64,000 nt of DNA from Laetmonice hystrix. Lineage: Eukaryota. Under the pieces are notes generated by a model. That model worked only from the letters and a program-made list of their open reading frames with translations, was not told the DNA's origin and made no database searches. Shown one piece after another: positions 15,501-64,000 of this stretch. The translations under genes were made by a program, and so were the position numbers. Numbering within the stretch: the first letter of the stretch is position 1; each line of letters begins with the position of its first letter. Location of the stretch: assembly GCA_965235115.1 (NCBI GenBank), contig OZ249436.1, positions 36,210,001-36,274,000 on the forward strand, written 5' to 3'.

Positions 15501-15534
15501 CTCTCCTGGGAAGCCATAGCGGCAACCTGCTTCA

Positions 15535-16937: not shown

Positions 16938-16949
16938 TTAAAAACAGTA

Positions 16950-33215: not shown

Positions 33216-35047
33216 TATGCTGAAATCAATTTGGAATTTCGCGTGTTAAAGCGGCATCGTTAGTATCTTCGAGAATAAAACACTTACCTCTCCCCTATAG
33301 CAACCTATTGACATATATATGAAGACACACTCTTACTGCAATACTGCAGTATGATGATTTTTGTTAACTAAAACTCGGACCGAAGCTAAAACATGATAAT
33401 TAGCAGGAGTTTGAATTTGCCGCCGCTCTCCGAAAGGGGCGCTGCAAATGACGTCGAACAACATCCCATAATAGTCCTAGGTCTTCAGGTATCGCTCCAC
33501 CATATTTGATCATCATTGCTTTGTAAATATGCCTCCGAGGGACGAAAGTCGATGTATGCAACAGAATCAGCTAAAAAGCTGAGAAAGAATGAGTTGGACA
33601 GAAGACGTGACAGTGCTCATGGCGTTGAAATAGATCGGTGGATGGCCTTGAAACCCCACCCTCCGACTAGTCAGTGCGTCACCTAAGACTGTGAGAGTCA
33701 CTGAAACCATAGACCTAGACTCTAGCTCTATGCTGAAACTCACCGCGGGAATGTCGCTGTTATACCGTTATCCACAATGGCCAAGCGGTTCTAAGGTAGA
33801 GCGTTAGATTGCAACGGAGCCAGCTGAGCGTTCTCACATTATACATTTGGTTGGTCTCACTTCAATTTATTTGAGTTTTACATGTGAGACTAAGCTGATT
33901 TATATGGCAGGGTGTCGATATTACAGTGGACCTTTAAACCGTATATCAAGTCAGTGTCCTACAAACTGTATTGTCAGGGAGAGACATATTTGAGACACCA
34001 GCAAACTGGGCAAGGCAAAAGCATAGGCTAAGGGGCATTTTCGTGAGAAAGCCTACGCCACGGGGAAGACCGTTTAGTGTTACTGGCGAGTCCATGACGC
34101 TGATGCCAGGTCCTATTAATATTCATGAGGTTGACTTCAAGCTCAACCTCCCACGGTTTAGCCTGCGCCTGTCCGCAAGGGGTAGAATACAGGATACGCG
34201 ATGCCCCTTGACAACTCAAGATGACTGTCAACAGTCATTCTATGACTCGCCTTTATACGGAGACATCACAACAGAGCATTCGCTGCACGCCAACTGCCGT
34301 GACGGTTGGACTGATGGACACCTCCGGTCTCTGGGCAGGGGACTCACTAAAGCTCTTCCAGGAGACAATCCAGAAATAACCGTATAGAAGATTTATGCTG
34401 TGTACATTTTTTTCTTCTGTGCGTGTGTGCTGTTTTGTTAAAGACACAGTTTGAAACTTCCGTGGTATAAGAACATTCCACACTGTTCATGAAGGATTGC
34501 AGTATGAAGCCAAAAACTGTGAGGCTGCACATAGTAAAACATTTCCCGCTATATAACAGACAAAAGGAACGAAAACAGCTGAATGTATATTGCCAGACCA
34601 TGAGAATATTAGATCATTCACGAACAATATTATTCCCTAAATTAAAACAAACTTTAAAGGCTTTTCTGGCAAAACAATTTGCGGTGGGCAGACACTGTCC
34701 ACTTGCCCAATCCATCACTATCTGTAAACAAAACAGGCCAAGAAATATCGTCACCCGGTCATTGCTTTCAGCAAAAACTCCTCATCAAAGCAATTTTAGC
34801 GAAACTGGAAAACCTGCAGTGTTTCCGGCTATATGATAGGTTAACTGCAAACATATGGGTTTACGAGTTTTACAGTCATAATATAAAAGTTATGACTCCA
34901 CATCCGCCAGCAGACACATGCCTTCCGGTCCAAGACGACATCAACCCATATATCCAGGTTTACAGACTCTACGATGTTCTAGGCGGTCCACACATGTGCT
35001 AGATCCCACTCGCTTGATTTCCATCCCAGATATGGGAGACATCTATA

Positions 35048-38664: not shown

Positions 38665-38937
38665 TTAATCGGGCGATAAGCAAAAGTAGGCCTATTTTAC
38701 AAATGGAATTAGCCCCGAGTTACCGTTCGACATCTATTTATAAATCATAGGGTATGTCCAAATATGGCAGCGGAAGCGGAGTAAAAGCCATGACAGCTGC
38801 AGAGACATTTTCCATTCCATTTTTAGAATACTTTAGCTTATCGCTCGAACATGAAAGTTTAGCATGGTGTACCTGGGGTAAATTTGAGGAATTTAGGATG
38901 CCACTTTAATGCATACTTATGTTGCCGTTCCTTGCAG

Positions 38938-42539: not shown

Positions 42540-45485
42540 TTAACTGCATGGTGAAAGGTAACCTAAGTAAAATCTGAATGGCCATTAAGGAAAACTATAA
42601 AGGGCAGAAATGAAATGTATGTCTTGTGCAAACGTTCTCAGATGCAGGTAGCATGTCAAAGAGGACAACAGCTAAACCTCGCCTCTTGTCGTAACCGTGA
42701 AACCGAGGTGCCAAAATCCACCACTCACATGCATGCAAAGACTGCGTTAATTGGTCTCGCCTTACGTGACTTCCGGTCAAAGGTCTGACGTATTCTCCTT
42801 GCCTCCTCCTTCATGAAAGATTTCGTCAAGGCAGTGGAGGTTATAGAGAGCCAGGGTATAGCCCTTTTGAAGCCAATTAATATTCTCTCACTTATTTCCC
42901 TGGTAAACCTGCCTATCCCTAATCCTAGTTGCAGCCCTCCAAGCTTCCATTATGTAAACATTCGAAGGGGGGGGGGGTCAGTGTTACTCAATGAAAAAAT
43001 TGTTTTGTGTTTAGGCCTATATTAAATTAGAGACCATTAAGACCGCACGACGTCATCTCTAAAAGAAACAAAACCAGAAACGTCCTGATCTGAGTGATGA
43101 ACGAAATTCTGGTATTTGCACTATTTTAAAGAAACATCGATATTTCAACATCTAATGAAGACAAGACTCTTTCAAAATACACGTTTGGTGAACGTGCCAA
43201 TGCATGTGGGTGGCTGAGCCTCACTGAGGTGCATGCGATTTCTACTGAATGTATAGCCATATAAATGTGTTGAAGCGCACATAACGTCCCGCCTCCAGGT
43301 TACTGGTATGATTCTAAATGATCTCTTTTTACACTGACGTCCTATAGCGTTGTTATATAGTTTCCGGGGTTTTCGGGGTGAGGGTTATCGGGGGGGGGGG
43401 GGGGGGGCAGCCCCCATAACTCCCTTGATTCGCCACTTTACATAATAGGCCCCTAAAATACACTCGCTGACTTAACATATCCCCACGCCTACCTGCTCTT
43501 TCTGATATAGTTTTGAACACATGGCCTGCCTCACTCGTCGCGTGTCTTGACGGCTCAGTCAGTCCTTGTTGGAATCCCCCTGAAAACCCGATGTCAGTTA
43601 GCCAGCGGATATGTCACACACCCATGGACGAGGTAAGGTTTCTTCTCTTCAGGCTCGATGATTGGAGCAGTAATCTGGCGCCGTCCTCCAGATGGAGATA
43701 GATGAGTCGGGCAAGGATGCACACGATGCTTTGGATAATCCGCCCTTAAAAACAGGTTCGAAAATTCGAGCCTATTCACACAGATCATCGAAGATTTGTG
43801 TATCTATTTTCAGCTTGAGATTGCATTTCATGTAAGAATACAAATATCTTTTGTTTCTACATTTATTCACGTAATATTTATTTACGTAATATCCCGGGAG
43901 GATTCGTCTCCGATTCTCGGGAGGGATTAATATTACACCCGTTGGCGTTTGTTATTCTAACCGACCTGCTCTCGGAAATGATTCATGGTAAGAATTTGGC
44001 ATGCAGTGACGTGTGAATGAATTGAAATTGTGTTTCAGTCGGGCGGATTAAGAATACCTCGTTCATAAATCTCTGACCTATCAATGATATTTGGCAAGCG
44101 CGAAACAAGTTTTCCACGATTTGATATAACTTTAACATTAAAATTTCAGTTATTTTTGAATGGTTTATTCTGCGGTACCTTGAGATTTTTAAAGCATGGC
44201 ACATTGACACAACAAACGTAGACTTTCTCACGAAAATGCCCCTTAGCATATGCTTTTGCCTTGCCTAGTTTTCCGATACACAAATATGTCTCTTCAGAGC
44301 ACTGACAATACAGTGTGGAGGACACTAGCTGACTTTATATACGGTTTAACACGCGAAATTCCAAATTGATTTCAGCATCGACTGTCGCTTCGCAAACTAG
44401 CGCGGCGAGCTGTCGGTCTCGGCCTAGCTCTGCCGTACCCGTGGGAAAGTTGTTTCTCCCACTGTCTGGATTGAATGCTTTGACCACAACAACTTTACTC
44501 GGGATGACCCTGGCTAACCAGAAATGCAAGCTAATTTTTATGAATGGCGCCTCAGACTTAGTTTGGTTCCCTACCCCTAGGTGGCTACGCACAAATAGGG
44601 TTAGGTACTGGCCACCATCTTGGCTCTGGATTCCTGGCACTTTCGAAGATATGGCCGAGGATTCCCGAATGGTGCCATATCAGCCGTACCCTTGCCCGCA
44701 CCGCAGCCGGACCGCAGCCGGACTGCAGCCGCGTTAATGGAAACTTAGCTTCATGTTACGATTCGAGCACAGCTGCAGATGAGCCGCATGAGGGATCCCC
44801 TTGATCCCTAGGGGGTTCCCACCAATTTCGTGCGTGTTCGTCACGCAAAAAAATGGATGACGCCTCGCGTGGTCAGCAAGCAAGATCTCGAAAAACTTCA
44901 TGGCAGATTATATTTGATCTCCTTCTCCTCATCTCTGCAATAGCTGCAGCGAGTCGAGAACTTCCAGGCCGTTCGTTTCCATCAACTGATGAGGGACTCT
45001 GTTGTGGTTCTAGAGATCAGCAAGTCCGTACTTTTCATTCTCGAGTGAATACCCCAAGGACGAAGACGGCGTGTGCATGCATACTCAATAGGAACATGAC
45101 AGATTCCTGCGTCTGCTACAATCTGCTGTGTTCTTTTCCCTACCGTCTACTGTGTAGCCTATATAATTATGTCACGCGACATCGGTCGATCCGACCGTGG
45201 TGGGCGACCAGTTGGTCGTTCCACCCTTGTGTCGGACCCATCGACCCGATGGGTTATGTATCTGTCGTGTTCAGTGCTAGATCTTCCAGTTCCTAAAACA
45301 TAGGCAATTCTCGCACAACGACATCGTTAAACGGCTCTATAGGTCCCTTAATCCGACAACCCAATAGTCCGGCAGCCTACTTAAATTTGGCCTCAGACCC
45401 AATCATAGGCGCCGGAACCGGGGAGGGGGGAGGGGGCAGGGTGGCCTGTTGCCCCCCAGCTCATAAGCTGGGGGGGGGCAAGCAT

Positions 45486-45948
45486 ATATTGTTTGCATGA
45501 AAACAACATTTCTTTGCGTGCAAACAATTATTGTTTGTCCGCAAACTAACTTTTCCTTTCTGCATGAAAGGTTCTCACAAACATAGGCCTACACAACCCC
45601 CCCCCCCCGCACCCCACCCCCCGCCAAGCTGGATCCACCCATGTAATAGACCTCTTACAAAATCTCTTTGCACGCAAACAATTATTGTTTGCGCACTATT
45701 ATTGTTTGCGCAAACAATTATTGTTCGCATGCAAACAATTTTGCATGCAAACAATATTCTTTGTGCGCGAACAATTATTGGTTGCATGAAAACAACATGC
45801 GCGCAAACAATTATTGCATGCAAACAATATTCTTTGCGCGCAAACAATTGTTTGCATGCAAACAATATTTCTTTGCGCGTAAACAATTATTGTTTGTGCG
45901 CAAACTAATTTTTCTCCGCCAAGCCGGATCCACCCCTGTAATAGACCT
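45486..45948. repeat. Array of palindromic GCAAACAATTATTGTTTGC units, partly duplicated
   Basis: Repeated GCAAACAA/TTGTTTGC; the end segment CCGCCAAGCYGGATCCACCCMTGTAATAGACCT occurs at 45621 and 45916. Confidence 0.85.
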
Positions 45949-46199
45949 ATACAGTCTATTGCCACGTTCTGATATGTAGTCGAGATGCCACGTGGTAAAA
46001 CGTTGAGTGAGGAAGTGATAAAAACAATTAGTGGAAATCATTATGGAGTGCCCGCCTTTTAATAGTTTCCTTTATAATATGATACCACTGCCAGACTGTG
46101 ATGAAGGTCACATGGAAGCCCAGGTAAAGCAGCTTATTATAGACCCCCTATATAGGCCTATAGCGCGGAACTTTCAGCTCAACTCTGTGATCTGGAAGT

Positions 46200-46442
46200 T
46201 CCGCTTGGCAGAGCTTCACGCCTGCGCATGCGCAGAGCTCTTAAGTGGAACATTTGGGCTCACAGCACCGGCCGTGCTGTATACATATCGAACATCGATT
46301 GCAAGACGCTCTGTGTAGGTCCTGCACGTGAAGCGGGTCGTGCACGTTTACACTGGTGATGCTGAGTCCCTCTGCTTCAGAAAAATAGGCCGAGGGCGTG
46401 GGCCTAAATCGAAGATGTTCACGGATACGGTGTACACTACAG
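46200..46442 (+). promoter_or_regulatory. Putative promoter and non-coding first exon of the SLC46-like gene
   Basis: CpG-rich patch; perfect NRF1-type palindrome TGCGCATGCGCA at 46223-46234; CAG|GTACGT donor at 46442; the coding exon has an acceptor (TTTTCAG at 49422) just before its ATG. Confidence 0.45.
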
Positions 46443-48129
46443 GTACGTGGGGTTGTGCCCAAAACCTGTATGGAGGGGTCGTGCCCGCGTTCTGAACGGG
46501 AGCTCAGGCCGAGATTTCTATATGTATAAAACTGTGTCCCTATATGGTTATATAAGAGACATATGCCTATGTATCACACCTGTAGGGGCTACCTCCATAA
46601 TACTGGTTAGGCCTATTCTGGATTCGGCTTATTGAGAGAAATATAGTCTGCATAATCTGCCAGAAAGCGGCTGCCATCACCATAGTAGGCATAGAACTGT
46701 ACGTAGTGATTCCACTATACAGTTCTGCATATAACACTAACCGCATAGGAAAACCAGCTGCTGCATGCACGCAGGCCCAGCAGTGCAGACGTTGCACTCA
46801 ACCCTCAAGGCAAGGTCTTGGCCAAGGCTACTAAACGTCGTCCTGTCCCTCCAAAAACAAATCCCAGAGGCTTCGAAAAATACCTTTATTAGGAAGAGTA
46901 TAAGAAATAATAGGCCAACACTACATATATAGGCCTACGGTATGGAATGGGGAAGGGAGAGTGCAATGGCACGACATTATAATCTAGGTCATCCGGTCAC
47001 CTCAGGTCAGATTATATGCAAGTCAGGGCCTACACTATACAGTACACATTGCACCAAAATGCCTGCTGTTACCAGTTTCGGGATGCATTTTATAATGTTT
47101 TGTGGAAATGAGTGACGCATGTTGTAGTAGATGTCTTTTGTATGTAGCTAGTCCTACACGGTTGACAACTCACAAACCACCTGGTCCACTGGATGGCCCG
47201 CCGGGCCGGCCGACTTGTCTTTGGTTGGCCTATATGGTTGACGGTGGAAAGAAAATCAAGAATGCATCGATGTATCTTTAAAGATATATACTTGTCACAT
47301 ATGTTAACGTAGAGATAAATACAGTATATTCGAATAAATAAAATCATGTATTCGAGATTTTTTATTTTATTTTACGACCAATCATAATGGTAAAAATCCC
47401 AAATCGACGGGCGAGTGGATCACGCCCCATGCCTTGTCTGGTTTCGCATGTGTTTTAATATCGCGAATTACAAACGTGTGTGGACAGAATTAGACCTGTT
47501 TTGTGACACAAAACGTAGGCCTAATATTTGATATTTTGAGGCAAACATTCTAATCTAAAGACTGCAATCTTTATACCAGCATCTATAAGAGTCTAATCTC
47601 CAATCCCGATAGTCCCCACATAGCCTTAGAGTAGCCAACATTTAGAAGCAAAAAAAAAAAGGAAAAGTAGGCTATGTATGGAATACTAGTATTATTTTTG
47701 AATGGAGGTCAACCGTACAATCATGTAGACCTATGTTTCTGGGTATCTGATTAATTCATGAAGGTTCAAACCACCTCGCATTCAAACATCACCAAGCTAT
47801 TTTCTGACTATACGAAGAAATCCCTCGTAAATATTGAGTCGATAGCTAATTTCTGCTTGAGACGTCAGCAAAAATGATAATGTTACTTTCAAAAAACACC
47901 TTCATGTACACACCTCGAGACGGAGAAACAATGTGCAATGATCATTCCGGTCACAAGCCATGGATGCCGTGGAAGACAGCCTGCAGCAAACGACACTTGT
48001 AAAACATTGCCCTCCAGCGCCTGTGGTAATATAACATGCGCGCGTGATACTGTCCATTGAATTGGAGATGTGGTCACCCAACTATATTCTCATTCTTACT
48101 CGTATTTTCTCTGCATGTATCCTCGTCTA

Positions 48130-48707
48130 TGGGATGCCTTTGGTACTTTTATTCAGCATTTACAGATATCTTCAAATATTTGAAGATATCTTCAATTAAT
48201 TTGAAGATATCTTCAATTAATTTAAAGATATCTTTAAATATTTAAAGATATCTGCAAATATTTACAGATATATAATGATATCTTCAAATGAATTGAAGAT
48301 ATCCTCAAATGATTTAAAGATATCCTCAAATGATTTGAAGATATCTTCACTTCTTTTAGGGATATCTGCAAAACAATTAAAGCTATACATTTAAAGTGAT
48401 GTTCGCACATAACCTTAATTCTATTCAAGATATCTTAAAAAGAATTACAGATATCTTCAATTGAATTACAGATATCCACAATTCATTTACAGATATCTAC
48501 AATTCATTTACAGATATCTTCAAATCATTTGAAGATATCTGTATCTAGATGCTTATTTCCAGATAGGTGTAAATGAATTATGGATATCTTCAAATGAATT
48601 GTGGATATCTTCAAATGAATTGAAGATATCTTCAAATGAATTGAAGATATCTTCAAATATTTTGAAGATATCTGTAAATGCCGAATAAAAGTACCAATAG
48701 CATCCCA
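48130..48707. mobile_element. Foldback-type TIR element built of GAAGATATCTTC repeats
   Basis: TGGGATGC...GGTACTTTTATTC ... GAATAAAAGTACC...GCATCCCA; ~21-bp internal GATATC repeats. Confidence 0.85.
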
Positions 48708-49436
48708 TGCATACTCGTCCGCATGGTGTCTCTACGTGTTGATATGGAAAACGGACTTTGTAGAATGACAACTTGATGCACAGATGAATTACCATTACAG
48801 ATATTTGCATTTCCTAAAGATTTTAAATGAATGAAAATCTATTCATCGTATAGGCCCCCCCTACCAGAGTTTTGTGATATTATTTATATTAACCTTTGAA
48901 TAAAAGAGAATTTATATAAAAAGCTTAGAGAATACTAGCACATGATTTGCCAAAGTTATAAAAAGTTGAGAAATATAGACCTGAAAGTGGTTGTCTCACG
49001 AATTTCAAGTCATACGTAGCGTTTCCCCAGAAAGTATGTCTGCATTGGGGGTCTCCAATATGATCCAAAGCTCCCGTACCTTTCGATGTAAACCTGGCGG
49101 TTATTATGTAAAATACGTTCAAAAAGTCGCCAAATCTTATTTCAGTCACTGAAAATGAGCTACTTGGCTTCCGAGACTGCGGTAGTTGTTTTTTATATCC
49201 CTATGTACACTGCTATGCAAATTATTTGTACTAACGAAAATAGATTTCGAATCTACACCACAACACATCATTCAATCGATTGGGCGACATGCCAAAACGT
49301 CGGCATGCATTCATCGTGTTAGCGTGCACTGTTGATTCTGTTGATTAGTGTCAAGCTGTTACCCCATGGCAAAACCTACGGAATCTTGTCATTGCCTAGG
49401 GTCTGTATTGTTCTGTTTTCAGCGGGCGGCAGCGCC

Positions 49437-50391
49437 ATGCAGTACGTCACCTCCCTCGTGGAGGACGGACCGGCCGACTGGGATAACGCGATTTCCAAGT
49501 CTCCACAGGAAAGAGAGCTTGATGAAGTTGACATTGGTGATGACGTGGCCACCGTAACTACGCCGTGGAAACCCAAACTGGTCACCATTGAACCTGTGTT
49601 GATTCTCTTCGGCATTGCTGCATCTTTGATGGATTTGACATCAAAACCTCTCATCTACCACAAAGTGTGCTATGAACACTTTCCCCAGAACATCTGCGAG
49701 AATCTACATAATAAAACATATGAAGAGGAGGAGAAAGAGGTGCAGGGCTCAGTGTCACATTGGCTTCTTTATACTCAGGTTCTTTACTACGTGCCTTCGT
49801 TTGTGTTAACATTTACCGTCTTTGGAAATTTTAGCGATAAAGTAAGTCGACGTGCCGCCATCGCTATACCAGCAGTTGGACATCTGCTGCAAGCTCTTAC
49901 GTTACTTTTTACGGCGGTTTTTATAGAAAGTCACGTTGGTTACATCCTGATTGGGGCACTGCTCAGTGGCCTATCAGGTGGCTGGGTGTCGATATTTATG
50001 GCTATGTTCAGTTACCTTGGAGAGGCTTCCTCCCCAGGGCGTCGTACCTTCAGGGTTTCCGTTGCCGAGGGCGTCGCTAGCGTCTCCGGTGTCGTTGCTC
50101 TGCTCGGCGGTGGCGCCCTATTGGACCACACAAATTACCTCACGGTGTTTTCCATTGTCTGTGGACTATTCCTTCTCTGCCCTATCTATGTTTACGCGTA
50201 CATGCTGGAGCCACCAAGACGTGCCAGCAGTGTGCCTCGGACGAGCGTCGGCCAAGGAGATTCCTGCTTCCGTTTATGGATGAGTTTGAGGGAATCTTTT
50301 ATGTGCGTCCTTCGTAAAAGACCACGAAATGGGAGGGCTCATCTTCTGGTGGCATTTTCAGTCGTGTTCACCGCTACTGCTGTGATATTAC
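49437..50391 (+). CDS. SLC46/proton-coupled folate transporter-like MFS protein, coding exon 1
   Basis: GCCATG; VTIEPV, YHKVC...C, FSDKVSRR (MFS motif A-like), GLSGG, FSYLGE..S...RTFR; C|GTAGGT donor, phase 1. Confidence 0.9.
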
Positions 50392-50656
50392 GTAGGTTTC
50401 ACAGTATATATTGACCCACTTTATACTCCAGAAATGTTATTAGGATATTTTTGTGCCAAACATTGCTTGATGTGAACTCACCTTAGATAGGCCTATGGGC
50501 CAACACACATATTAATATATATCACAATTGTTTAACATGTATATCTTTCCTGAGAATAAGATAAAAGCCTGCCGATATGGGAACATTGTAGGATAGCAAT
50601 ACTTGTGGGATTTAGTTAAAACTTTATTGTTCCCTTAACATTTTACATTAAACCAG

Positions 50657-50902
50657 ATATATATGCCGCCATTGGATACCTCTTCCTCCGACGACAGCCC
50701 CTCAGCTGGTCACAGACCCTCTACGGAGTTTTCTCCGCCGTCCTTGAAGGGTCGTCGGCTTTGGGGTTTCTCCTCATCATCCCACTTATGAAGACATATC
50801 TCCACACTTCAGACACAGCCTTAATGATCATAGGGCTTTTATCGTCGATCGTATCCGCTGGATACTTCGGCTTTTGTACCAAGACATGGATGGTTTTTAT
50901 AG
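50657..50902 (+). CDS. SLC46-like exon 2
   Basis: CCAG| acceptor; (H)IYAAIGYLFLRRQPLSWSQTLYG...SDTALMIIG...TWMVFI; G|GTAGGG donor. Confidence 0.85.
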
Positions 50903-51064
50903 GTAGGGATTTCTGATATAATTTTCTTTAAATAATGTCTACGTGGCATTGATAATTTTTGATAATTTTAATTATAAAATAATCCAACGATAGGCTATCA
51001 ATACAATGTATCGCGAAGGATATCTTCCTAGACCGGCCTTATATAAATTTTATTTGTGTTTCAG

Positions 51065-51145
51065 TACCAGTTTTAAACCTGTTGAACGGGGGTTTATGGG
51101 CAATAAGGTCATTTGTCTCACAGTTGGTGGAGTCCGATGAGCAAG
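51065..51145 (+). CDS. SLC46-like exon 3
   Basis: TTTCAG| acceptor; VPVLNLLNGGLWAIRSFVSQLVESDEQ(G), matching the SLC46 RS..S..V...EQG motif; G|GTACGT donor. Confidence 0.85.
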
Positions 51146-51193
51146 GTACGTTATTATAACCACTTACATCCCAAAGTATTATATTTTAGTTAA

Positions 51194-51445
51194 AGCAATC
51201 AGCGAGTATCTCTCATTTCAATTACTCCAAAATGAGACATGGGTTATTAGGTTGTTAGGTAAGATAAGGCCTTAGACTACATAAATCAATAAATGTATAC
51301 CCACAGAAATGGAGAAATCTAATGAAATTCAACATTCCAGTGGCCATGCAGTTGTCGCCATGAAGCGAACGACTCATGGCTGGTTGTTGACCTGGCATTG
51401 ACTTGAGATCCCATCAAAGATATTCGTATAACGATGCTGTAACTT
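51194..51445. mobile_element. Kolobok-like MITE family B, inverted partial copy in SLC46 intron 3
   Basis: TTAA|AGCAATCAGCGAGTATCTCTCATTTCAA; body is the reverse complement of ~29730-29888. Confidence 0.7.
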
Positions 51446-51528
51446 AATTTTTAAGAATTACTTTAAGGATTCTGGCCTCGGATATCAATTGTGTTAAGTC
51501 ACGATTATGTTGGTGTCTACTTGAGCAG

Positions 51529-51685
51529 GTCGAATGTTCGCCGTCTTTGGAACAGTTCAGGCGGCCAGTGGAATTGTTGCCCCAGTTATCTTCAACGGCA
51601 TATATCCACCTACTCTCAAATTCTGGCCAGGATTCTCGTTCTTGTTGGGAGCTATCCTAGCTTTCATACCACTCGCTATGTTATG
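51529..51685 (+). CDS. SLC46-like exon 4
   Basis: GCAG| acceptor; GRMFAVFGTVQ...IFNGIYPPTLKFWPGFSFL; TG|GTAAGT donor. Confidence 0.85.
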
Positions 51686-52037
51686 GTAAGTCGTAGTTTA
51701 GGGAATGTTAGTCAAAGGGGCTTTGCCGTTTGGCAGTTGGAAATGAGTCAACAATGGTGGCCATCGTTTATTTGTAGGCATATGTCGGAGAATAATCGTG
51801 AGATTTTTTAATTTCTGAATGGCGTTGAGCAATGTCATAAACTACCTGCATGGACTGTAAAAGTAATTTCTGAATCACGTGTTAATGTCATAAAGTGTGG
51901 TCTGAGCCGTGTCGGATTCGTACATTAAAATCATGACTTGTTACTACCACCCCACCCCCCCCTCCCCCCAGCCCGGTCAGAATACAGGGTGTGACGCACT
52001 CGCCAACCCTCAATTATTATGTTCTATCTTTAACCAG

Positions 52038-52105
52038 CTGGCTGCATTGGGACGTCAGGAGAACAGCGTCCTTTAAAGACCGATCGTCGGGCGCAGATGC
52101 CAGGG
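52038..52105 (+). CDS. SLC46-like exon 5
   Basis: CCAG| acceptor in phase 2; CWLHWDVRRTASFKDRSSGADAR; G|GTAGGT donor (read-through gives GRSSIKRIN*). Confidence 0.65.
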
Positions 52106-53170
52106 GTAGGTCTTCGATAAAGCGTATTAATTAATGATCATTTATTACAACTAACACACTATTAAACAAACAACTATTTCTGGTAACCCACTGACCGTAA
52201 CTGTAGGTCTCGACGCCAGGTGGCGGATCAATCAGTGTTATTTTCAGGCTGCATGTAGATACAACGTTTCACGACAGGTGGTTCACGACAGGCGGCAGTG
52301 CCAAAGCATGGTTTTCAAACCAGGTCTTCTTGCATGCATTCAAGCGATAGGTTAATAAAAATTGTTGATGAAAATATAGTCATATTGTCGGCCAACAGAC
52401 TCCGACGTTGTGCCTCTGGTGGATCCCTCTGCAGAGTTTGATGATGAATAGTTGGAGCCCGTAGGTGTTCTCTCTTCCTTCATGCCGGTTCGTATTCATA
52501 CCTCCGTATGATAGGGGCCATTCAAAAATCATTCTCTCCTTATATGTAGTTAAGGTAGTAATAGGGTCCAGGCATAGGCTACAGCCATCTTTAATGGTTA
52601 CACGTCATATTGGTGGTGATGGTATGGTGGTGGTGTACTACTTGTAGTGATGGTTGTAGCACATTGTGTTGCATAACATGGTACAAGGCTTGATATAGGC
52701 TAACCTTCCCGTCAGAAACGTTACATTAATTAGTGCAGTTCAACTCAATTTCGTTCAGTGTCATTCTTGAATGGCCCATCACCTTTAGCCTCCGGCATCG
52801 TTGTCGTATATATTGTCACGTAACCACTGTACCGGACACCTCTATATATCAAGTTCAGTTGCACCCAGATGAAAATATTCTCCTTTTCTTGCTTTAAAAA
52901 CTGTATCTGTTGTACGTGTATTTTGGCCTGGAGATTTAGACTCATTATTCTACGTACAACCATACCAGGTCAGTTCGCAGAATAAGAATTTAAGAACGCA
53001 TTCTAACTTGGCAATTGGGGGTTTAGGGTTTTCTCGCAGATGTTGCAGCTGTGTAGCACTGACTCTCACCCACCCAACACACCTATCATGGGCTATAAGT
53101 AAGTATAGAGTTTGGAGCAATGAAATGAAAAGTGAAGATTAAATTTTAAAATGTCGCCTTTTTATTTCAG

Positions 53171-53235
53171 AGAGGATAGAAATTACAGATAGGGTCAAGC
53201 GCTACGGTCTGTGGACTCCTTCCGAACGATTTTAG
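53171..53235 (+). CDS. Possible SLC46-like terminal exon
   Basis: Strong TTTTTATTTCAG| acceptor, phase-compatible; ERIEITDRVKRYGLWTPSERF*. Confidence 0.4.
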
Positions 53236-55281
53236 AAATGTTACCCTCATTGTTGGAGCGGAGCCTATCACGTTGGAAATGCACATCAAGGAGCTGTATT
53301 TGCCAGTGTTTAATCCGAAGATAGGAAATTGTTGGGACCAGGTATGGGCTGCCTAATGTTTGTAAAAATACTTTTGCCTAGGGCGTTAAATAGGATAGAG
53401 ACTGAAGTCACTGCTGGACATTCTGATTTGCTCACCAAGAGGCTTGCGCTATCAGTTCTGTAAAATGGCCGAATTGCTATGTTATTCAAGACAAGCCTTA
53501 TAAGTTCAGTATAACTACAGTATGCTACATGTTTAAAAAGGCAACAAAGTGATTTACAAGTATACTGTAACGTAAAACTACGTCAGATCCAGATGGCTAA
53601 AAATTCATATTATAATTATACTTGATATTGGAGAAAAAAGGTGAAGAGAAGTCTCACAGAACAATTCAGCCGTTAGCATTCTTGAAGAGGATGAGAAGAG
53701 ACACTGATCCGGATCTCTCAGATCTTTCTTATCAATACTTACGAAGTGTAAAAACAGTTGTTGTTTCACAAAACGTTATGTATGGATGAGGCACAGTATT
53801 ATGTATGGGTGCCTTATAAATGTGTCTTATGTAAATGAGACCCTGTAAAATTCAGTATCTTCATGTATTGCTAATTTAATTGAGGATCAAACTACACCAC
53901 AGGCCTTTAACAAATTCTTCACATTCAGAGATCTGCTGGACAGAATTGCCCAAAACCATGCTTTCAGTAGGCCTATATTATGTTGGACAGAGAAGTATAT
54001 TATAGGCCCTATAGGCCCCAACGTACGCCCTATATCTGCATAGGCCCCTATCTGCATATAATGTATGCTGGGTTGAACTGCCATAATGTATTACATGTAC
54101 AAGGCACTGTACAGACTTTCCTCAACCGTTCCCCTTGTCCCCAAAGTCTAGGTGACGCCCTCTATGGGATTATGAAGATCCATAATTTTTCAACGATTTC
54201 TGTATGTTGTGAATATAATCTTGCCTTGAAGTAAATGTTGACTGTGGTGAAACTTGCCAAAAATACAATGCTGGGGGGGGGGGGGGCTCTTGGAGATAGA
54301 CAACACCCGTTTCATAATACAGTTCTCTAAGTATCCATGGGTGGTTCATGGGCAAGTCTATACATAGCCCCGTTAAAGATACATGTATACTAATGAAGTG
54401 CCTCTCGGACCTTGCGTCCTCCAGTTGTAAGCTGGGCCTACTCATAATATAGATGTCTGATGACCCGTGACGCCCTCCGTTTATTTGAATCTCGCTCCGC
54501 CATTCTTACTGTCCACCTGCTACAGCAATGGAGGTGCAGGATAGGCCTATACAAACAACAACATGTATCGAGAAATGCCTACTCCATATGCAGGTTATAT
54601 TAATAAATATACATGTACTCATACCAATTCCAATGTATTGTTGGGCCTGACGATCCTCAAACTGACTGATATGTATTAGGCCTGTAACAACACCCGTCCA
54701 GGACATTTAAAGGTGTGTACCATGACTTGTGTATGAGATACTCAGTGCTTCTCACCTAACTACACCTGCAGAAATAATAATAAAAAATAAATAAATTTTA
54801 TGCCTGTGTTTTTTTTAATTCAAACTCTGACAGAAGGATATAGTCTGTGTAAAATTGTAGTAGATCTAATCGTAAATGAATTCTGAAGAGAACAAATTAA
54901 AATGGTTGGTGGTGGTGGCGGTGGTGGTGGTGGTGGTGGTGGTGGGGTGGGGGTGCGTCATTACGACAGCGGCCCAGGGCAACTCCTTGCCAATTAAAAT
55001 AATTTTGCCTAAAGTCTAGGCTATATAATGTCCCATTGTTATGTTGGGCTTATAGCAGGGGCGGATCCAGAAAATCTCGGGGGTGGGGAAGAGGGCCCGG
55101 GCAATCGGACGAAGCACAACTTACGAGCCCTGAAGGCAGAGTATAGGGCCGGGTCCTCCCCCAGAAAATTTTAAAAGTAGCCACTCGTTCCTAGCGCTAT
55201 GGCTTTTGGGGGCCGCTTTGTCCTTTTGGCTGTTCAATCCACACTCTCAGGCTTTTTTTGCTTGTTTGTGTGTCTGTGTCT

Positions 55282-55312
<31 letters not shown>

Positions 55313-55547
55313 GGGTCCAGGGTGACCGGGGCCTACATAACATAGATCTTTAGGCCTGACATGTAGGGACTTAGGCCTAGCTTATTTTCGTTTTCCCTGT
55401 TTATCCAATAGCCCCTTCCAGAAGAGTCTGGAAGAGTCTATAAAATTAATATAGGCCTATAGACTTCCAGAAAAACAATCGACCGATGACATTTTTAAAG
55501 AGTAGAAGCCTCTGGAACCCAAACGGTCCATTTCCCTATATATAGTC

Positions 55548-55875
55548 AGGCCCGTAACCAAGGGGGGGGGGGGGGGGGGGTCCATGCATAGGCCCATCCA
55601 ATACTAACCAGTGTAAAAAAGTTTTCTATGTTATAGGCCTATGGGTCTATGTTAAAAAATAAGTGTGGCATAAAACATGTGCACAGTGAAATAATAGGCA
55701 GGTTATAAAAATATAGGTTTTAAGACCTATAGTGTTATAGATCTAGGCCTATGTTTAAAAAAAAATAGGCCTATGGTAAAAAGGTTCAGCTCCTCCCGAA
55801 AACCGAAAAGACCCCCCCCCCCCCCCTTTAGGCCTAATTGGAAATCCTGCGTAGGGGCCTAGATCTACGGGCCTG
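55548..55875. mobile_element. hAT-like MITE upstream of the ABCC gene
   Basis: CAGGCCCGTA ... TACGGGCCTG, with poly-G and poly-C arms. Confidence 0.6.
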
Positions 55876-56430
55876 CTTGATCGCGAGTTCTAGCATGCAT
55901 GAACCCCCTTCATTTGGGGGGCATGGAGCCAGGGGCGTATAGAGCTCTTGGCTGAATTAAATGTGTAGATCTAGGCATTTTTTTTGGGGGGGGGGAGGGC
56001 ATTCTTTGTTGGCAAATCACATGTAACTTTTGGAGTCTATTTGAGCCTAATTTAATTTTAGGCATAGATAAACATAGAATCTAAGGGCCTATAGGCCTAT
56101 TGCATTTTTGGCAAATCTAGGCCTATTTGTTATCTGGGCCAAAAATTGTATGGAAGCTACGCGCCTGGGCTGACCACGCCCTGGGGGACCACGTGCACGC
56201 GCGGGAAGTGCTTGCTGCCCTGAGTCTACACTGGTTCCCAAAGGTACCACTACGCTACACTGGCGCTGCGTTGCGCTCGCTCCGTGGCTCCGTGGTGGAC
56301 AGGGGACCAGTCTACCCTGAGTCTATGAAACTCCTCACAGAGGAGTTCCAGATTCCGCTTCCTGTGTGAGGGAGGCGCATGCTCATCGAGAGGCCATTTG
56401 TCGCTGGAGTCAACCCCTTGTGGAGGATGA

Positions 56431-56511
56431 ATGCCTGACAAGGTGAAAAGCTACCAATCCTGGGCATTGCATTCACCGATGATGGATTCGTTTTGTGGGT
56501 CACCGTTATGG
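56431..56511 (+). CDS. ABCC1/MRP-like ABC transporter, exon 1 (start at 56431 or 56479/56482)
   Basis: MPDKVKSYQSWALHSPMMDSFCGSPLW|GTCAGT; the FC...PLW|D junction is typical of long MRPs; in-frame TGA lies immediately upstream of 56431. Confidence 0.8.
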
Positions 56512-56957
56512 GTCAGTATACATTGGTACTTGTAATAATGTCATGATGGTGGGCAGGTGATGTACGCCGCCGAAAGTGTTGATCGTTTCGTTGTTGTTGC
56601 GTGTTGGTGTCGCCTGTCGGCATGGTCGGTGAACGGAATCGTGCGTCAAGCCACACACAGAACGCAGTCGGTGTGGGTTTGTCGGTGCCGACTGAGCGTG
56701 CTGTGGATGGGGTTGGGAGGCGGGTTGTATTTAAAGGTGGCCCTAATCGGAATGACAAATGACATGGAATAACGAATGACCAAACAAATTTGGCATTTAG
56801 GACTGCCAAGGGAGCAGGCCTTATGTTATGATAATGATAATAACAGTTAGACCGTCTATCATACTCTATGCCATTCTTTTTAGACATTCGGTAATGTGTA
56901 ATGTGCCTAGAATCTACATTAAATTTTGTTGACTGTTGTGTAGGCATTCACCATCCG

Positions 56958-57164
56958 CAGACCTGAAATTAAGGGAAATTTGCGTAACCCATTTTTCATT
57001 CCCCTGTTTTTTATTTTAGGTAACCGACAGGGGAACGAAAAGACCGTTCACCTGTAAAGTTAGTCTCAGGCTTGCAAAATTTGCAGGTGAACGGATTTTC
57101 GTTCTCGGCCTTTCCATTTTAGGTGAACCATACGTGTTCGCGTCTTAAATTAAAATCAGGCCTG
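56958..57164. mobile_element. hAT-like MITE with 6-bp TSD CATCCG and an internal hairpin
   Basis: CATCCG|CAGACCTGA ... TCAGGCCTG|CATCCG; internal GAACGAAAA..CCGTTCACCTG / CAGGTGAACGG..TTTTCGTTC. Confidence 0.7.
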
Positions 57165-57311
57165 CATCCGCCCTACTGCTTTTTGTGTCGAATCTAACAA
57201 AATACTTGCAATACCTGTAAGAACAATATTATTAGAGAAAATCATAAAGTGGAGCCTTTATTTCTATAGTGCCTTTAACAGGGAGCAATTGTCATTCGGT
57301 TCTGTCATCGA

Positions 57312-57660
57312 ATACACGACATGTCCGCCCCTCGGTACTATGCCCGCCCGCCCGCGGTGCCTCTGTGATAGACACTCGACTCTGCCAGGCCACCCTGTCC
57401 CTGCCGCCCGTGGTCCCGGGGAAAGCCGTCAACGTGACTAGGACAGTCTACTGAGTTAGAGTGTATCAACAACTCGAGATCAACTGTTGTAATCGCTAAG
57501 TACCCAACAAATGAGAGCCACCTCGTCGTAGGTAACATGTCCCTTGCCGGGCGCCTCTTGAGCGAAGCGGCGAGTGCCGGACATGAAGGGGGACATGACC
57601 GGGGGTAGGGGCCTCCATCCCGGGGGGCGGACATGGCGACGGGCGGACACGTCGTGTTAC
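57312..57660. mobile_element. GC-rich TIR element
   Basis: ACACGACATGTCCGCCC ... GGGCGGACACGTCGTGT. Confidence 0.55.
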
Positions 57661-57999
57661 CCTGTCATCTCCTGAATCAGTTCAAATTGGTGATTACCAC
57701 TCCAGCAGCTAGTAACTAATAATTATTTGTCAGTTTAGGATTTTGGAGTGGTCATGTACAGACACTGAGACAGTCCCAGCCTGGGGACCTCCCAAGTTTC
57801 CAGTTTGTGGTGCTGATCTAATCCTCTCCATGTAGGCCTATAGTAGTCTAGTGTGTCGAGGCACTATCTAGGACACACTGTTGAGGCACTATCTAGGACA
57901 CATTACCATTCCAGCAGCTAGTAACTAATAATTATTTGTCAGTTTAGGATTTTGGCAAAAGGAGGGGTCATGCACAGACACTGAGACAGTCCCAGCCTG

Positions 58000-58197
58000 G
58001 GGTGCGTTGCATAAAAAATCCCCGCCCGTTAAATCTGACGCTAACGGTCAGTTAACGAGATGTAGCGTTGCATAATAAATTCCCATCTGCTACAGTTCCC
58101 GTTAACTGTTGTTTTTTAACGGGCACCTAAAAGGGCCCCGCTATTTTAACGGGGCATTTAAAAGGAGTGGGCGGGGATTTTTTTATGCGACGGGCCC
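58000..58197. mobile_element. Harbinger-like MITE (CWG flanks)
   Basis: CTG|GGGTGCGTTGCATAAAAAATCCC ... GGGATTTTTTATGCGACGGGCCC|CAG. Confidence 0.8.
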
Positions 58198-58995
58198 CAG
58201 GGGAGAGATTGAGCTGAGCCTGGGGTGCTCTAGAAAATGCATATTTCTAACAACGTAATAATTTTTTTTTTTTCAAATTTAGTTCTACCTGTACAATTTA
58301 TGCAAATGGTAAGGCTAAATTCTCAAATTAATATAAAGTAGAATGATAAATTAACAAACTGTTGTTTTTATTGGGGGTTGAACTGGGTGACCTCCTAAGT
58401 TCCCAGTTTGTGGTCATCTCCATGTATAGTACTAGTGTGTCGAGGCACTATCTAGGACATAGACACACTGTTGAGGCACTATCTAGGACACACTTTCAAT
58501 TTCTGTTTCTGGAAGCTTTCAGTTTCAAGTTTCTCTTTCAACGTTCAGTCAATGTTTATAATATCCACCACTTTCACTAATGTAATGTCAGTGATATAAA
58601 GAGTACCACTACTAGTACACACAAAGAGAAATACAAGTGTACCCAAAGAAACCTGCCATATAATTAATTAACTTAAGCCATTCTTGGATAACACTTTAAA
58701 AAGACTGCAGTTCTGAAGAGACACTGATTTATCCTAAAATGTGCATGGCAGAGTTGCTGCATCTTCAGTACAGATATTAGTTCTCTGCTCAATCATGAAT
58801 TCATGATATAGGTATGGTAGTGAGGTGCTCATGTCATGAATTAGGCAAACTTTCCAACCAAGGCCTATCTGGATATGATGAAAGATTTAAATACAAATAC
58901 GGTTAGAGACAAATAAAATGGCATATTTTTTTGAAACACATTGTATGAATTCAGAAATGATTTAAATCCTCACTGAAATTATGTTTTATCTGCAG

Positions 58996-59172
58996 GATTC
59001 GCAGCTGACCCTGAACACCACCAGTCCAGACCTCACGCCATGCTTTCAGCATACAGTGTTGATATGGATTCCTTGTGGCATCTTGTTCTTGCTCTCTTTC
59101 CCCTACTATTTGAGCCTGCGTCAATCAACATGCGAACCCATCAGGCACAATGCCTTCAACATTACCAAAACA
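58996..59172 (+). CDS. ABCC1/MRP-like exon 2 (TMD0)
   Basis: TGCAG| acceptor; DSQLTLNTTSPDLTPCFQHTVLIWIPC...NITKT, matching MRP1 PD.T.CFQ.TVL.W.PC; ACA|GTAGGT donor; 177 nt, phase 0. Confidence 0.9.
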
Positions 59173-59227
59173 GTAGGTGACAAGAAGTTGGCCATATTAT
59201 TAACATGATCTAATATTAACTAAATTA

Positions 59228-59314
59228 CCGTATATGTCCCTTTAGCCGCACTTGTGCGTGTGCAGAAAAGGTGTGCGGCAAATAGGTAGAGCGCGGCTAA
59301 AGGGACATATACGG
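59228..59314. mobile_element. 87-bp TA-flanked MITE (Tc1/mariner/pogo-like)
   Basis: TA|CCGTATATGTCCCTTTAGCCGC ... GCGGCTAAAGGGACATATACGG|TA. Confidence 0.85.
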
Positions 59315-59482
59315 TACAAGTTTGATTAGTGATATTTAGAGCAAAATTTGTATTGTGCAGACTCTCCCTGGGTTTTGTTACTTCTATTCTAAAGTTTAAA
59401 AAGGGTAATTTGCTGAGATGTTGCTGTAATAGCATTAATTCCCAGTGCCTAATTAGTTAATTTAGACAATTGATTTTTACAG

Positions 59483-59608
59483 GTGTTGAGCCTTATTCTG
59501 GCAGTATTGGCTTTGGCTGACTTATTCCGTCGTGTTCACGAGCGCACACAAGGTCAGCATGTTTATGGGGTGTTCATACTCGCACCATCTCTGCGCTTTG
59601 TTACCATG
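59483..59608 (+). CDS. ABCC1/MRP-like exon 3
   Basis: TTTTACAG| acceptor; VLSLILAVLALADLF...FILAPSLRFVTM; ATG|GTAAGC donor; 126 nt. Confidence 0.88.
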
Positions 59609-59916
59609 GTAAGCAATTTTGTTAATTTTGAAATTACAACTAAAATAAAAATAGAAAGGAGCAATTGAGTTGCTATAATTATAAAACTAAAGACTTATCT
59701 TAAATTTTTAATTACTATGTGGCAAATTAATACAGCTTAAAAGTTAAAATCCAACTCTTATAATAATACCTTATAATGACTTTTATTTATTATATAGTAA
59801 AAATATCGAGGTAAATACAATAGGTTAAGATCATACACTTATTCTATTGTATTTACCTCACATTTCTAACCTAATGTTTTCCCCAAGTTCATAGATATGG
59901 TGGGTGACTGTTGTAG

Positions 59917-60048
59917 ATCCTAGCTGCTTTGGTGCAACAGTTCAGTCGTTTAAAAGGCAAGCGATCGTGTGGAATACTCTTCATCTATTGGTTATTCTCA
60001 TTGTTCAGTGCCATCTTCATCCTCGCCAGCCATATCAGAGGAGTTGTG
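59917..60048 (+). CDS. ABCC1/MRP-like exon 4 (TM3 end to TM4); alternative in-frame donor at 60060
   Basis: TTGTAG| acceptor; ILAALVQQFSRLKGKRSCGILFIYWLF (MRP1-like KG..SSG.L..FW); GTG|GTCAGT or CAG|GTTCAA, both phase 0. Confidence 0.85.
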
Positions 60049-60421
60049 GTCAGTAAACAGGTTCAATGGGATTGTTAATTACATCAAATTGGGATAGCAA
60101 GCTGTTTTCATAAGGACAAGACCACTTGCTGGCACTTTATCACTGAGGTGTGTTTGTAAACTTACTGAACTGGAAGGACCTGTTGCTGGGCAGATGTGTT
60201 CACATCTTGGCAAACCTAAGCAGGCTTTTCATCATTGCAGTAACTGGGTGTACAAATAAGACAATACATCATGTTAAGACATGTATAACTTTAACCTCAT
60301 GCAATAAAAAGTATGACATCCTTGTATTCCCAATAAAACTGGAATTATGTCTCCATGTATTTCACAGCCAGTGGTTAAGCTGTATATCATGTGATTCCAT
60401 TTCTTGTTGTTTTTATTTCAG

Positions 60422-60565
60422 TTGTCACAGTCAAGCAGTCTTGAAAGCATTACCACTGGTAATGGCAGCAGTGTGGTGTACAGTTCCCTCCCAGTCAATG
60501 GATCAGGACCACTTTATAATCCTAACAGTATCACACCTGAAACAACCAGGGAGACCCCGCTCCAG
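60422..60565 (+). CDS. Putative extra ABCC exon (S/T/P-rich, two NGS sequons) with tandemly repeated donors extending to 61038
   Basis: Strong TTGTTTTTATTTCAG| acceptor; 144 nt, phase 0/0; LSQSSSLESITTGNGSSVVYSSLPVNGSGPLYNPNSITPETTRETPLQ|GTAATT. Confidence 0.6.
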
Positions 60566-61044
60566 GTAATTATATCATTGTCAGGACCACTTTATAATCC
60601 TAACAGTATCACACCTGAAACAACCAAGGAGACCCCGCTCCAGGTAATTATATCAGTGTCAGGACCACTTTATAATCCTAACAGTATCACACCTGAAACA
60701 ACCAAGGAGGCCCCGCTCCAGGTAATTATATCATTGTTAGGACCACTTTATAATCCTAACAGTATCACACCTGAAACAACCAGGGAGACCCCGCTCCAGG
60801 TAATTATATCATTGTCAGGACCACTTTATAATCCTAACAGTATCACACCTGAAACAACCAAGGAGACCCCGCTCCAGGTAATTATATCATTGTCAGGACC
60901 ACTTTATAATCCTAACAGTATCACACCTGAAACAACCAAGGAGACCCCGCTCCAGGTAATTATATCATTGTCAGGACCACTTTATAATCCTAACAGTATC
61001 ACACAGGTGCTGAAACAACCAAGGAGACCCCGCTCCAGGTAATT
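60503..61044 (+). repeat. 78-bp tandem repeat, 7 copies
   Basis: Unit TCAGGACCACTTTATAATCCTAACAGTATCACACCTGAAACAACCARGGAGACCCCGCTCCAGGTAATTATATCATTG starting at 60503, 60581, 60659, 60737, 60815, 60893, 60971. Confidence 0.97.
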
Positions 61045-61517: not shown

Positions 61518-64000
61518 GCAAAGGTTTTGACTCTGAGAGACTATATAAATTTCCACTCAAGCTGTTTTTTTTTCTGGTACAAAAAAAAGAAGTTTTATAA
61601 TAATAATGGCGACTAAGTACAATGTACAAGCCTACTACAAGGAAATTATTTATCAATGAGATCTTCATTTTGCCTTGTTGCAGTTTAAGGAAATTGCAGT
61701 TCTTTAAAATAACATACCATACCCCCTCAAAAATGAAAGACTTGAAGTACGTGTATATAATTAGTTAGTATCTGTGGAGGACGGGCTGAAGGCATGGCAT
61801 TGCCAAATCTAAATGTGTGTACAGTGTGTGTGACCCAATATCTGTCTGTGTCACTTTAACAACCTCTATGTCCTTTGTAGATGGGCCAAACTTTGATTGT
61901 TGTTTGTGATGGCTGATAGCAGTGACCCGAGCAATCTGGCTGAATTGACTTAGTCAGCAGCGATCCCTCTAAATATTATCTGGCACTCTCTTTCATCATT
62001 GGCAATTATATAAACAAAGGCTCAGCAGGCCAAGTGCCAGAGACCGTGGGAATGTTATGTATAAAAGCAGGGCAATAGACTGGTGTTATCGTGCCCCAAA
62101 TACCCCAGACTGTAATAATACACAACTAGATAGGATGTGGCGATGGCCACATTATGAATCCCATCCCCCTGGGGCGTTCCCGTTCTACTAATTTTCAACA
62201 TGAAACATGGCTCCGTCTTGCACCTATCACAAGTTATAATCCTTGCCTTAATAGATGCCAATAATGTCATTATGATGTCAGACAGTACGCTGCTGTACAT
62301 CATGAATCTTGGCGTCAAATGAAAGCAGGGTTCCCTGCTTTTTGTGAACATCCAATTCCCTAAGTGTTTTCCTGAGAATTCCCTGAGAAATTTCCAAAAT
62401 TCCATGTGATATATATTTGTGTTTTATAGGTAGCATAACCGATTATAACGGTCCGGAGAGGTGCATTCTTCACACTCTATCAACATTACAAAGCCACGAT
62501 ATAAATAAGTCATTTTTTCAGGGATTCCAATACCGTCATAATATGATCATTATGGTCTCCGGTCGATCTGGCCCATGACCGATATGGCCTGGTTGATATG
62601 GCCCAGGTAGTTGGTCAATATGGCCCACCCCCGGTCAATATGGTACACTAGCTAGCTTTTCACGGTAATGCCATCATGAGTTGCTAGTCTGGGAATATTT
62701 CCCTTTGAGGCTGAAGGTGGAGATGTCAGCACCTGTACCTGAGTGTGAGAAAGCTTTTGACGGCACGCTGCATAAATAATATTGGTATCAATTGAAAGAG
62801 CATAATCTTTCCATTCATGTTTAATAGTAACTATGAGAGTATCTCGCACCGTTTAGCAGTTTTACTTACAGGCCTCTGAAAATCGTTATAGTACTCCACA
62901 ACATATCTAGTGCAACTCTCCTCCTATGTAAGATTCAAAAACATCTATGTATTAGACAGTTATACCTACAGTTCAGAACCACAGTTAATTCAGTTATGTC
63001 TGTTCTGAATACACATAGGCCTAATCCTCCAACCCTGCCCTGATTGGGAGGAAAGGGGGAGTATAGTGACTCACGACCCACCGGCCCAAACTGTGAAATC
63101 TATCCACATCAATCTGCTGGCTCACTAAACCAAGGACAGCTGGCCAAGAGTTGTTTTGTAACTTTAAGAAGACAGCCTTCATGAGAGTTTTGTTTTATTG
63201 CTTTCCTCCAATATAAGATTAAAAAAATATGAATTAGACAGTTACACATACAGCTCTAAAGCACAGCTAATTCAGTTGGGGCTGTTCTGGACATACAGAT
63301 TCCTCCAACCCCACCCTGACTGGGACGACCGGGTAGTCGACACCAGCCGGCCTTATCAGCAGCAATTACATAACTCTCAGCCCCGGCCAGCGCCGGGCGG
63401 CACCAGCTCACACTGCGGGCGGTCTGTGTATACAGAGACTGCAACCATCCTAGTGCCAAACATAATAATTTGTGAAGACTATACCCATGAAAACTTATGA
63501 TTTTGGCTATATTGCCTTTCGAGAAAAAGAATTAAACAATCAGTGGTATACCTGACTCTATGCACTTTATAACAGACGTACTTGCATATGGTCAATACCT
63601 TTCAAGATACAGCCCGTAGAAGTTCGGTTACATAAATCAGAAAGATGACGTCATAGATGACATCACAAGTCTCGTGATACAAAAATTATGGTACGTAATT
63701 AAAGAGGACATAAACCTTTATAAAGTTAATGAACAATTAAGGCTCTGTCTTAAATCTTTCAAAAGTTACAGCAAGGACCTTTCAAAATGACCGAAGTTCA
63801 AAATTTCAAGGTCACGTGGTTCAGTGAAAATAGGTCAAATTGCTAAACCCGATGTACCAGTTTTTGGAGCTTTCAGTGGAAAATGTTTCTACCAGATATT
63901 GTCAAATTTCACCAAAAAATGGGGAAGAAGACTCGATTTAACCGATTTGTGACCTCAGACCCAGTTCTCTCTAAGCTTAAAGGTCAAAGGTCAAATCAAG

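Follow-up and report, generated by a model that had tools for sequence, protein, structure and literature searches.

What are the short palindromes that pile up just upstream of the first exon of an ABCC transporter gene, and why do they gather there? We analyzed this locus within the whole 64-kb stretch of DNA in which it lies (the window). The main word, TAGGCCTA, is an eight-letter palindrome built as TA-GG-CC-TA. It occurs 32 times in the window, where 0.89 copies are expected, and is the top over-represented non-homopolymer 8-mer of the window as a whole. A second word, TAGATCTA, is present in 5 copies against 0.74–0.96 expected. A previous sequence-only reading of this DNA had reported 8 copies of the former and 3 of the latter in front of the ABCC gene, and our motif count of the 754 bp from 55372 to 56125 gave the same numbers: TAGGCCTA at 55372, 55452, 55634, 55744, 55766, 55829, 56092, and 56118, and TAGATCTA at 55738, 55860, and 55966. 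Other scar-like words in the cluster are TAGGGGCCTA at 55852, TAGAATCTA at 56075, and one-mismatch copies of the main word at 55343, 55351, 55589, and 56059.

When 32 motifs were placed on random TA sites, the best span of this size held at most 7, and 8 was reached in 0 of 20,000 trials. The outcome was unchanged after TA sites were weighted by the flank preference of the motif, which was learnt from sites outside the cluster. The cluster also holds 3 of the 5 copies of TAGATCTA, where 0.09 are expected (P 5e-5). The co-clustering of two different words at ABCC suggests a feature of the locus, not the hopping of one element, as the cause. In the 1.7-kb stretch that separates the 3′ end of SLC46 from the start of ABCC, TAGGCCTA reaches 4.8 per kb compared with 0.16–0.68 per kb in five other regions; scars are 10 times denser in this intergenic stretch, at a TA density similar to that of the regions compared. 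The remaining 24 of the 32 copies lie outside the cluster, and none of the 32 falls in coding sequence (about 2.9 kb, approximate coding sequence). The copies in the cluster are not local duplicates, as likeness among their flanks is no greater than among the remaining sites (8.25 vs 7.75 of 24, P 0.12). The CpG observed/expected ratio is 0.2–0.75 in parts of the cluster, which is low and unlike an unmethylated island, and an Rfam scan of 44000–60000 gave 0 matches. Three pairs of scars share one TA (55738/55744, 55852/55860, and 26335/26341). We do not claim that scars attract scars, since such chaining is about what local density gives (by a hand estimate, about 1.5 pairs are expected in the cluster). 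Contigs of the other allele of the animal carry 19, 10, and 22 gap letters over 54960–55908, some of which homopolymer runs could explain; elsewhere, the count is 0 in 52013–52755 and 58463–59300 and 10–19 in the 3′ UTR region. With gap letters that total at least 51 in about 840 bp, the cluster zone appears to be actively varying.

The window contains three genes on the + strand: a rhodopsin-family GPCR, an SLC46/PCFT-like transporter, and an ABCC1/MRP1-like transporter. A protein homolog search returned 4 relatives, the best with 61–67% identity. The first coding exon of the SLC46 gene (49437–50396, +) matches the proton-coupled folate transporter in the PDB (E 6.8e-23) and MFS_1, and its last exon plus 3′ UTR spans 53171–54800 (+), with X4 contigs over 53170–54749 and AATAAA at 54779–54790. 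Four runs of one sample contain this stretch. X4 has the properties of a spliced library, in that one of its contigs (depth 10.7) begins at the acceptor at 53170 and carries 74 letters that do not align, and the depth over the 68-nt SLC46 exon at 52038–52105 is likewise 10.7. We place the end of the gene near 54.8 kb because X4 cover ends at 54749, adjoining AATAAA. The ABCC first exon that had been proposed from the letters alone is real. Its coding part (56479–56511, +) reads (M)MDSFCGSPLW, is followed by a donor GT at 56512, and resembles MRP1 exon 1; exon 2 (58996–59172, +) matches MRP1 structures in a phmmer search (E 7.6e-9). An X4 contig spans 59048–59174 and then diverges from the genome sequence. 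X4 cover is absent over ABCC exon 1 and over 54928–55903 and is uninformative on the TSS.

An 88-bp MITE (56227–56314) that is high-copy in the genome separates the candidate ABCC core promoter from the first coding exon; its 9-bp target duplication lies at 56218 and 56315, and its bin has a depth of about 3000 vs about 50. What had been called a CpG-rich leader is therefore in part a dispersed repeat. ABCC intron 1 is packed with high-copy repeats over 56880–58600, among them an element at 57310–57661 that is flanked by an 8-bp target duplication and whose right end is of the GG type; we take it to be Merlin-like. Farther downstream, a 78-bp tandem repeat (60395–61042; 6.9 copies, 96% alike) has an open frame on the ABCC strand; it may represent an exon enlarged by repeats or lie in an intron. 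Two foldback-like elements, at 25342–28012 and 48129–48708, combine terminal inverted repeats with internal arrays of 50-bp or 21-bp units.

Comparison with paralogs shows each TAGGCCTA to be a TA site that gained GGCC and a second TA. For this comparison, we computationally deleted six bases from all 438 TA-N4-TA sites and scored the short and long forms against paralogous sequence in the window. The short form (plain TA) fits at 4 of 4 informative TAGGCCTA sites, the other 28 of the 32 having no paralog, compared with 10 of 76 for other TA-N4-TA words (Fisher P 6e-4). By look, these 10 non-palindromic sites are mostly tandem-repeat or alignment artefacts; they were kept in the count. At 29630–29637, TAGGCCTA stands in one arm of an inverted repeat, while the other arm and a third copy have a plain TA. 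Insertions are likewise seen at 38687–38694 relative to the opposite arm (38814–38848), at 57833–57840 relative to a paralog at 58414–58454, and at 63016–63023 relative to a paralog at 63268–63328. Looser alignment, in which six paralog comparisons agree with an insertion, adds the sites 29630 and 45584, the latter relative to a paralog at 13311–13367, and an 8-nt variant at 11661. In the strict test, 0 of the 8 cluster copies has a same-genome paralog. We rejected one further candidate insert, TAGGCTA at 34024, which is native to its own repeat; short variants are thus not all inserts.

Within the cluster, the order of events can be read from a MITE. The sequence-only reading had placed such an element here, and we confirmed it as a 329-bp, CAGGCCCGTA-ended unit at 55547–55875 by terminus pairing, with CAGGCCCGTA at 55547, the right end at 55875, and no recognizable target duplication. 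It contains 4 TAGGCCTA, 2 TAGATCTA, and one TAGGGGCCTA. Its right end carries 14 extra bases in the form TA-GGGGCC-TA-GATC-TA, that is, two chained inserts (8 + 6 nt; 55852–55867) at the single TA of the terminus, while the left end of the same copy has a plain TA. We scanned metagenome contigs for this MITE end, allowing a variable gap at the terminal TA, and obtained 38 hits, which are copies from other species and not from the family of this genome. The terminal TA is plain in 15 of the 38, mostly in AT-rich contigs, and 12 of these 15 have the expected C-run 5–9 nt upstream. The remaining 23 are chance-like, apart from one, a MITE end whose 4-nt insert is different. In MITE context, 0 of the 38 hits has a GGCC- or GATC-type insert at the terminal TA. 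Because the 14 bases are extra at an otherwise plain terminal TA, the two motifs at the MITE end are younger than the MITE. The motif at 55829 was probably inserted too, judging from a spacer of 15 nt in place of 5–9. The comparison of this MITE with its consensus that had been proposed, done here on the right terminus, found no such motif at that TA in other copies (15 plain TA). Two parts of the idea that the words are scars stood, namely that they are insertions at TA, from the paralogs, and that at least two are younger than the MITE, from the terminus comparison.

The CAGGCCCGTA-ended terminus recurs in unrelated metagenome contigs, including L006, L009, L014, L015, L020, and L039, and two of the metagenome copies have near 8-bp target duplications (7/8 and 6/8). 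A viral scan for the MITE end returned 1 match, judged to be chance, and a viral paired-motif scan was set aside, as 93 of its 121 loci held just the two query copies. A GTDB scan gave 7 matches in GC-rich bacterial contigs, one of them plain, so that plain matches can arise by chance.

We then asked where promoters may lie, using five housekeeping-promoter motifs; the list was picked after both regions had been read, and the scan is thus not blind. Only two 300-bp patches in the window hold at least three motif classes, near 46.2 kb and 56.19 kb, and the two densest scar zones coincide with them. The patch near 56.19 kb is the candidate ABCC core promoter (56174–56209, +), with motifs at 56174, 56190, and 56203 that we take to be a GC-box, an E-box, and an ETS-like site. 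The other is a candidate SLC46 promoter with a non-coding first exon (46224–46442, +); it holds an NRF1-type site at 46224, an E-box at 46325, and a GC-box at 46394, and we infer a donor at 46443. This candidate is surrounded by the second scar-dense zone (45584–47523). A looser cluster of 5 exact copies (45584–47516) had been pointed out here; taken alone, it is not significant, as 5 is reached in 1915 of 20,000 trials (P about 0.1), whereas counting TAGGCC or GGCCTA sites gives 10 sites, reached in 35 of 10,000 trials (0.0035). Within 1 kb of the SLC46 NRF1-type site, there are 4 exact copies vs 0.76 expected (P 0.006) and 7 one-mismatch copies vs 0.87, a number reached in 0 of 1000 local shuffles. 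At ABCC, the one-mismatch excess is weak (3 vs 0.95; 72 of 1000 local shuffles).

Measured from the core motifs, the closest exact scars are found 71 and 73 bp upstream, followed by others at +384 and +1642. Such spacing is compatible with scars that accumulate in the flanks and are not retained in the cores; the putative SLC46 exon 1 does, however, contain two one-mismatch copies. The zones are shaped differently: at ABCC, 13 of 13 sites are upstream, and at SLC46, 6 of 8 are downstream. No pile-up was seen at the GPCR gene, where the 1.7 kb ahead of the ATG contains 0 exact copies; likewise, 0 lie within 1 kb of the ATG or of the NRF1-like site at 18205. This would be compatible with a germline-silent gene, but it may also simply be a miss. 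A third promoter-like patch (9030–9520) has an NRF1-like word and CCAAT, and the 9–11 kb region holds five scar length variants vs 0.14 expected. A Pfam search of 141 ORFs of 1–19300 found no credible gene, and the patch is therefore tied to no gene.

In this non-blind scan, scars are raised at 2 of 2 multi-motif patches and absent at the GPCR ATG and at 18205. We consider the promoter association, at two loci with candidate promoters, reasonably probable. The sequence-only reading had ascribed it to an insertion process that prefers accessible chromatin. A bias at excision or in retention would be at least as likely in our analysis, given that insertions of Minos and Sleeping Beauty show no TSS enrichment. 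Mu and P are TSS-enriched, unlike these two elements (PMC7337890), and ZB shows slight TSS enrichment only (PMC7913693).

As a whole, these observations are best explained by excision footprints of the Tc1/mariner type that are enriched in promoter-flanking DNA, a reading to which we give a probability of roughly 0.5. Its first part, the footprint origin of the scars, is likely in itself. A TA-targeting cut-and-paste transposon with GG...CC ends would insert and duplicate the TA. On its later excision, two terminal bases would stay on each flank, and end-joining would fill these in to leave TA-GG-CC-TA. TAGATCTA may be the equivalent scar of a family with GA...TC ends. The bias would arise where elements land in the promoter-flanking DNA of broadly expressed genes, or are re-cut there; in open DNA, more frequent re-cutting would give an excess of scars. 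Alternatively, selection may remove whole elements and tolerate a 6-bp scar. By any of these routes, the density of scars would mark germline-open DNA that flanks promoters.

The flanks of the scars favor Y after the TA, then A/T, then T; among the 64 half-sites, T or C stands at +1 in 48, and A at +3 in 4 vs 27% background. Length variants of the form TA-G(m)C(n)-TA are also in excess (GGC/GCC 16 vs 6, GGCCCC 4 vs 0.15, and GGCCC 2 vs 0.5), as a GG- or GGCC-ended element with a variable stagger would give. The related word TACATGTA occurs 6 times in the window vs 1.4 expected. TACAATGTA/TACATTGTA occurs 8 times vs 0.8; it may be a repeat word or else a 2+3 scar left by a family with CA ends.

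A matched TA|GG...CC|TA element was not found in the 64-kb window. The sole GG-ended candidate seen is a degenerate, TA-flanked 336-bp inverted-repeat element at 32882–33217, with ends GGGCC and TGGCC. Other TA-flanked TIR elements, at 16948–17984, 20123–20978, and 59226–59316, have CAC, TCG, and CCG ends, and TACCGGTA, the 2+2 scar predicted for the CCG-ended element, has 0 copies in the window. An intron of the GPCR gene contains a fragment (32014–32340; SPDFTPLDFF...WGYLKDKV) that has no Pfam hit and that looks to us like the C-terminal part of a Tc1/mariner transposase. Tc1 scars in the germ cells of C. elegans are rare and variable (PMC4490562), and this animal would therefore need clean end-joining in its germline.

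The words might instead be footprints that gather in a local hotspot unrelated to the TSS, produced by local hopping, by a heap of MITEs that serve as preferred targets, or by an open SLC46 3′ end. We hold this to be rather unlikely, although just two promoters are positive and the exact copies at SLC46 give a P of only about 0.1. The cluster begins about 570 bp (about 0.6 kb) past the SLC46 end; lying in the 1.7-kb intergenic stretch, it has the end of one gene and the start of another close by, and the 3′ UTR is scarred too, with TAGGCCTA at 53968 and 54542 in the SLC46 3′ region. Local hopping is reported for ZB, SB, P, Tol2, and Ac/Ds (PMC7913693), and Ds and piggyBac favor both gene starts and gene ends (PMC7337890). 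A hotspot of this kind fits poorly with the co-clustering of two different words, with a second-densest zone that falls at the other promoter-motif patch, decayed copies included, and with a density that climbs toward ABCC and halts at the core motifs. A transposon-free origin, in which a nuclease makes 2-nt staggered TA breaks in nucleosome-poor DNA that are then filled in, tailed with 1–4 G on each 3′ end in a TdT-like manner, and joined, is improbable. It would leave the excess of TAGATCTA and TACATGTA unexplained, and the 2+2 form outnumbers the variants beyond random tailing. What speaks for it is that TdT prefers G, that no parent element was found in the window, and that the enriched variants made of G and C only are G-then-C and not C-then-G (TACCGGTA 0; TACGTA 12 vs 10).

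Whatever its origin, a palindrome flanking promoters could also be a selected transcription-factor site, for a ZFX-like factor with consensus AGGCCTAG or for a dimeric factor. TACATGTA is treated as a Phytophthora promoter motif (PMC3520976), and a MYB-related factor is reported for it (PMC11134190). We find this quite improbable here: the AGGCCTAG consensus is read at just 5 of 32 sites on either strand, fresh insertions lie within intronic repeats, 24 of 32 copies lie outside the cluster, and variants of other lengths exist. An origin of the motifs by local duplication, or as repeats native to the sub-terminal part of the MITE, is very improbable, as 4 of the 8 TAGGCCTA lie outside the MITE, its terminus is plain in 15 other contigs, and the likeness of the flanks is not above background; a weak similarity between 55632–55674 and the 55744–55766 region (E 0.03–0.11) is what favors it. 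We retain promoter-enriched excision footprints as the preferred reading.

Footprints of Tc1/mariner elements consist of the terminal 2–4 nt flanked by TA, such as TACAGTA/TACTGTA for Sleeping Beauty (PMC6943129), and taCATGta is a Tc1 footprint cited in PMC3520976. The scars in the window resemble these in the TA duplication around 2–4 extra bases and in their length variants, and they share the AT-palindromic flank preference of ZB and SB (PMC7913693). They differ in being GG/CC and GA/TC, in occurring about once per 2 kb, and in having one dominant form; unlike insertions of Minos and SB, they are concentrated at promoter-like DNA. In enrichment just upstream of starts, with old insertions purged from gene bodies, they are like promoter-targeting transposons (Mu and P; Ds and piggyBac at both gene ends; PMC7337890). 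Unlike for Mu, P, Ds, and piggyBac, the record here consists of scars and not of resident elements. To our knowledge, none of these four duplicates TA alone.

The nearest printed case in our literature search is TACATGTA in Phytophthora promoters (motif-1 / M93; PMC3520976, PMC3597505), likewise an abundant TA-NNNN-TA palindrome upstream of genes. There, it is read as a transcription-factor site and the footprint reading is explicitly set aside, whereas the related word studied here is seen as an insertion relative to paralogs. The ZFX/ZNF711 motif AGGCCTAG shares AGGCCTA and is promoter-proximal (PMC5848610); by contrast, the final G is present at 5 of 32 of our sites, and the ABCC cluster lies upstream, while ZFX binds downstream of starts. 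In our literature search, which covered the text of openly available papers, we found no report of TAGGCCTA or of footprints piled at animal promoters. The main text of two annelid chromatin preprints holds no GGCC or palindrome passage, and their supplementary motif tables could hold TAGGCCTA. New here are the controlled paralog test, the use of a MITE end for dating, and two candidate promoters that coincide with scar-dense zones.

Overall, the feature is real, its insertion origin is directly visible in paralogs, a footprint mechanism is likely, and the promoter bias at two loci is suggestive. Footprints are known from excision assays; they are not known to form a dense layer with a positional bias in the non-coding DNA of animals. 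Tentatively, and with more doubt than confidence, we propose that stereotyped, TA-bounded scars left by hit-and-run transposition gather in the germline-open, promoter-flanking DNA of invertebrates and of eukaryotes more widely. If this is true, scar density would be a sequence-only map of germline accessibility, the scars would be a steady supply of small promoter indels, and they would be the true origin of some catalogued promoter palindromes, such as TACATGTA in oomycetes. Should the promoter bias hold genome-wide, sequence alone could suffice to locate promoters and germline open chromatin in unannotated invertebrates, and studies of motif enrichment would have to tell mutational scars apart from binding sites.
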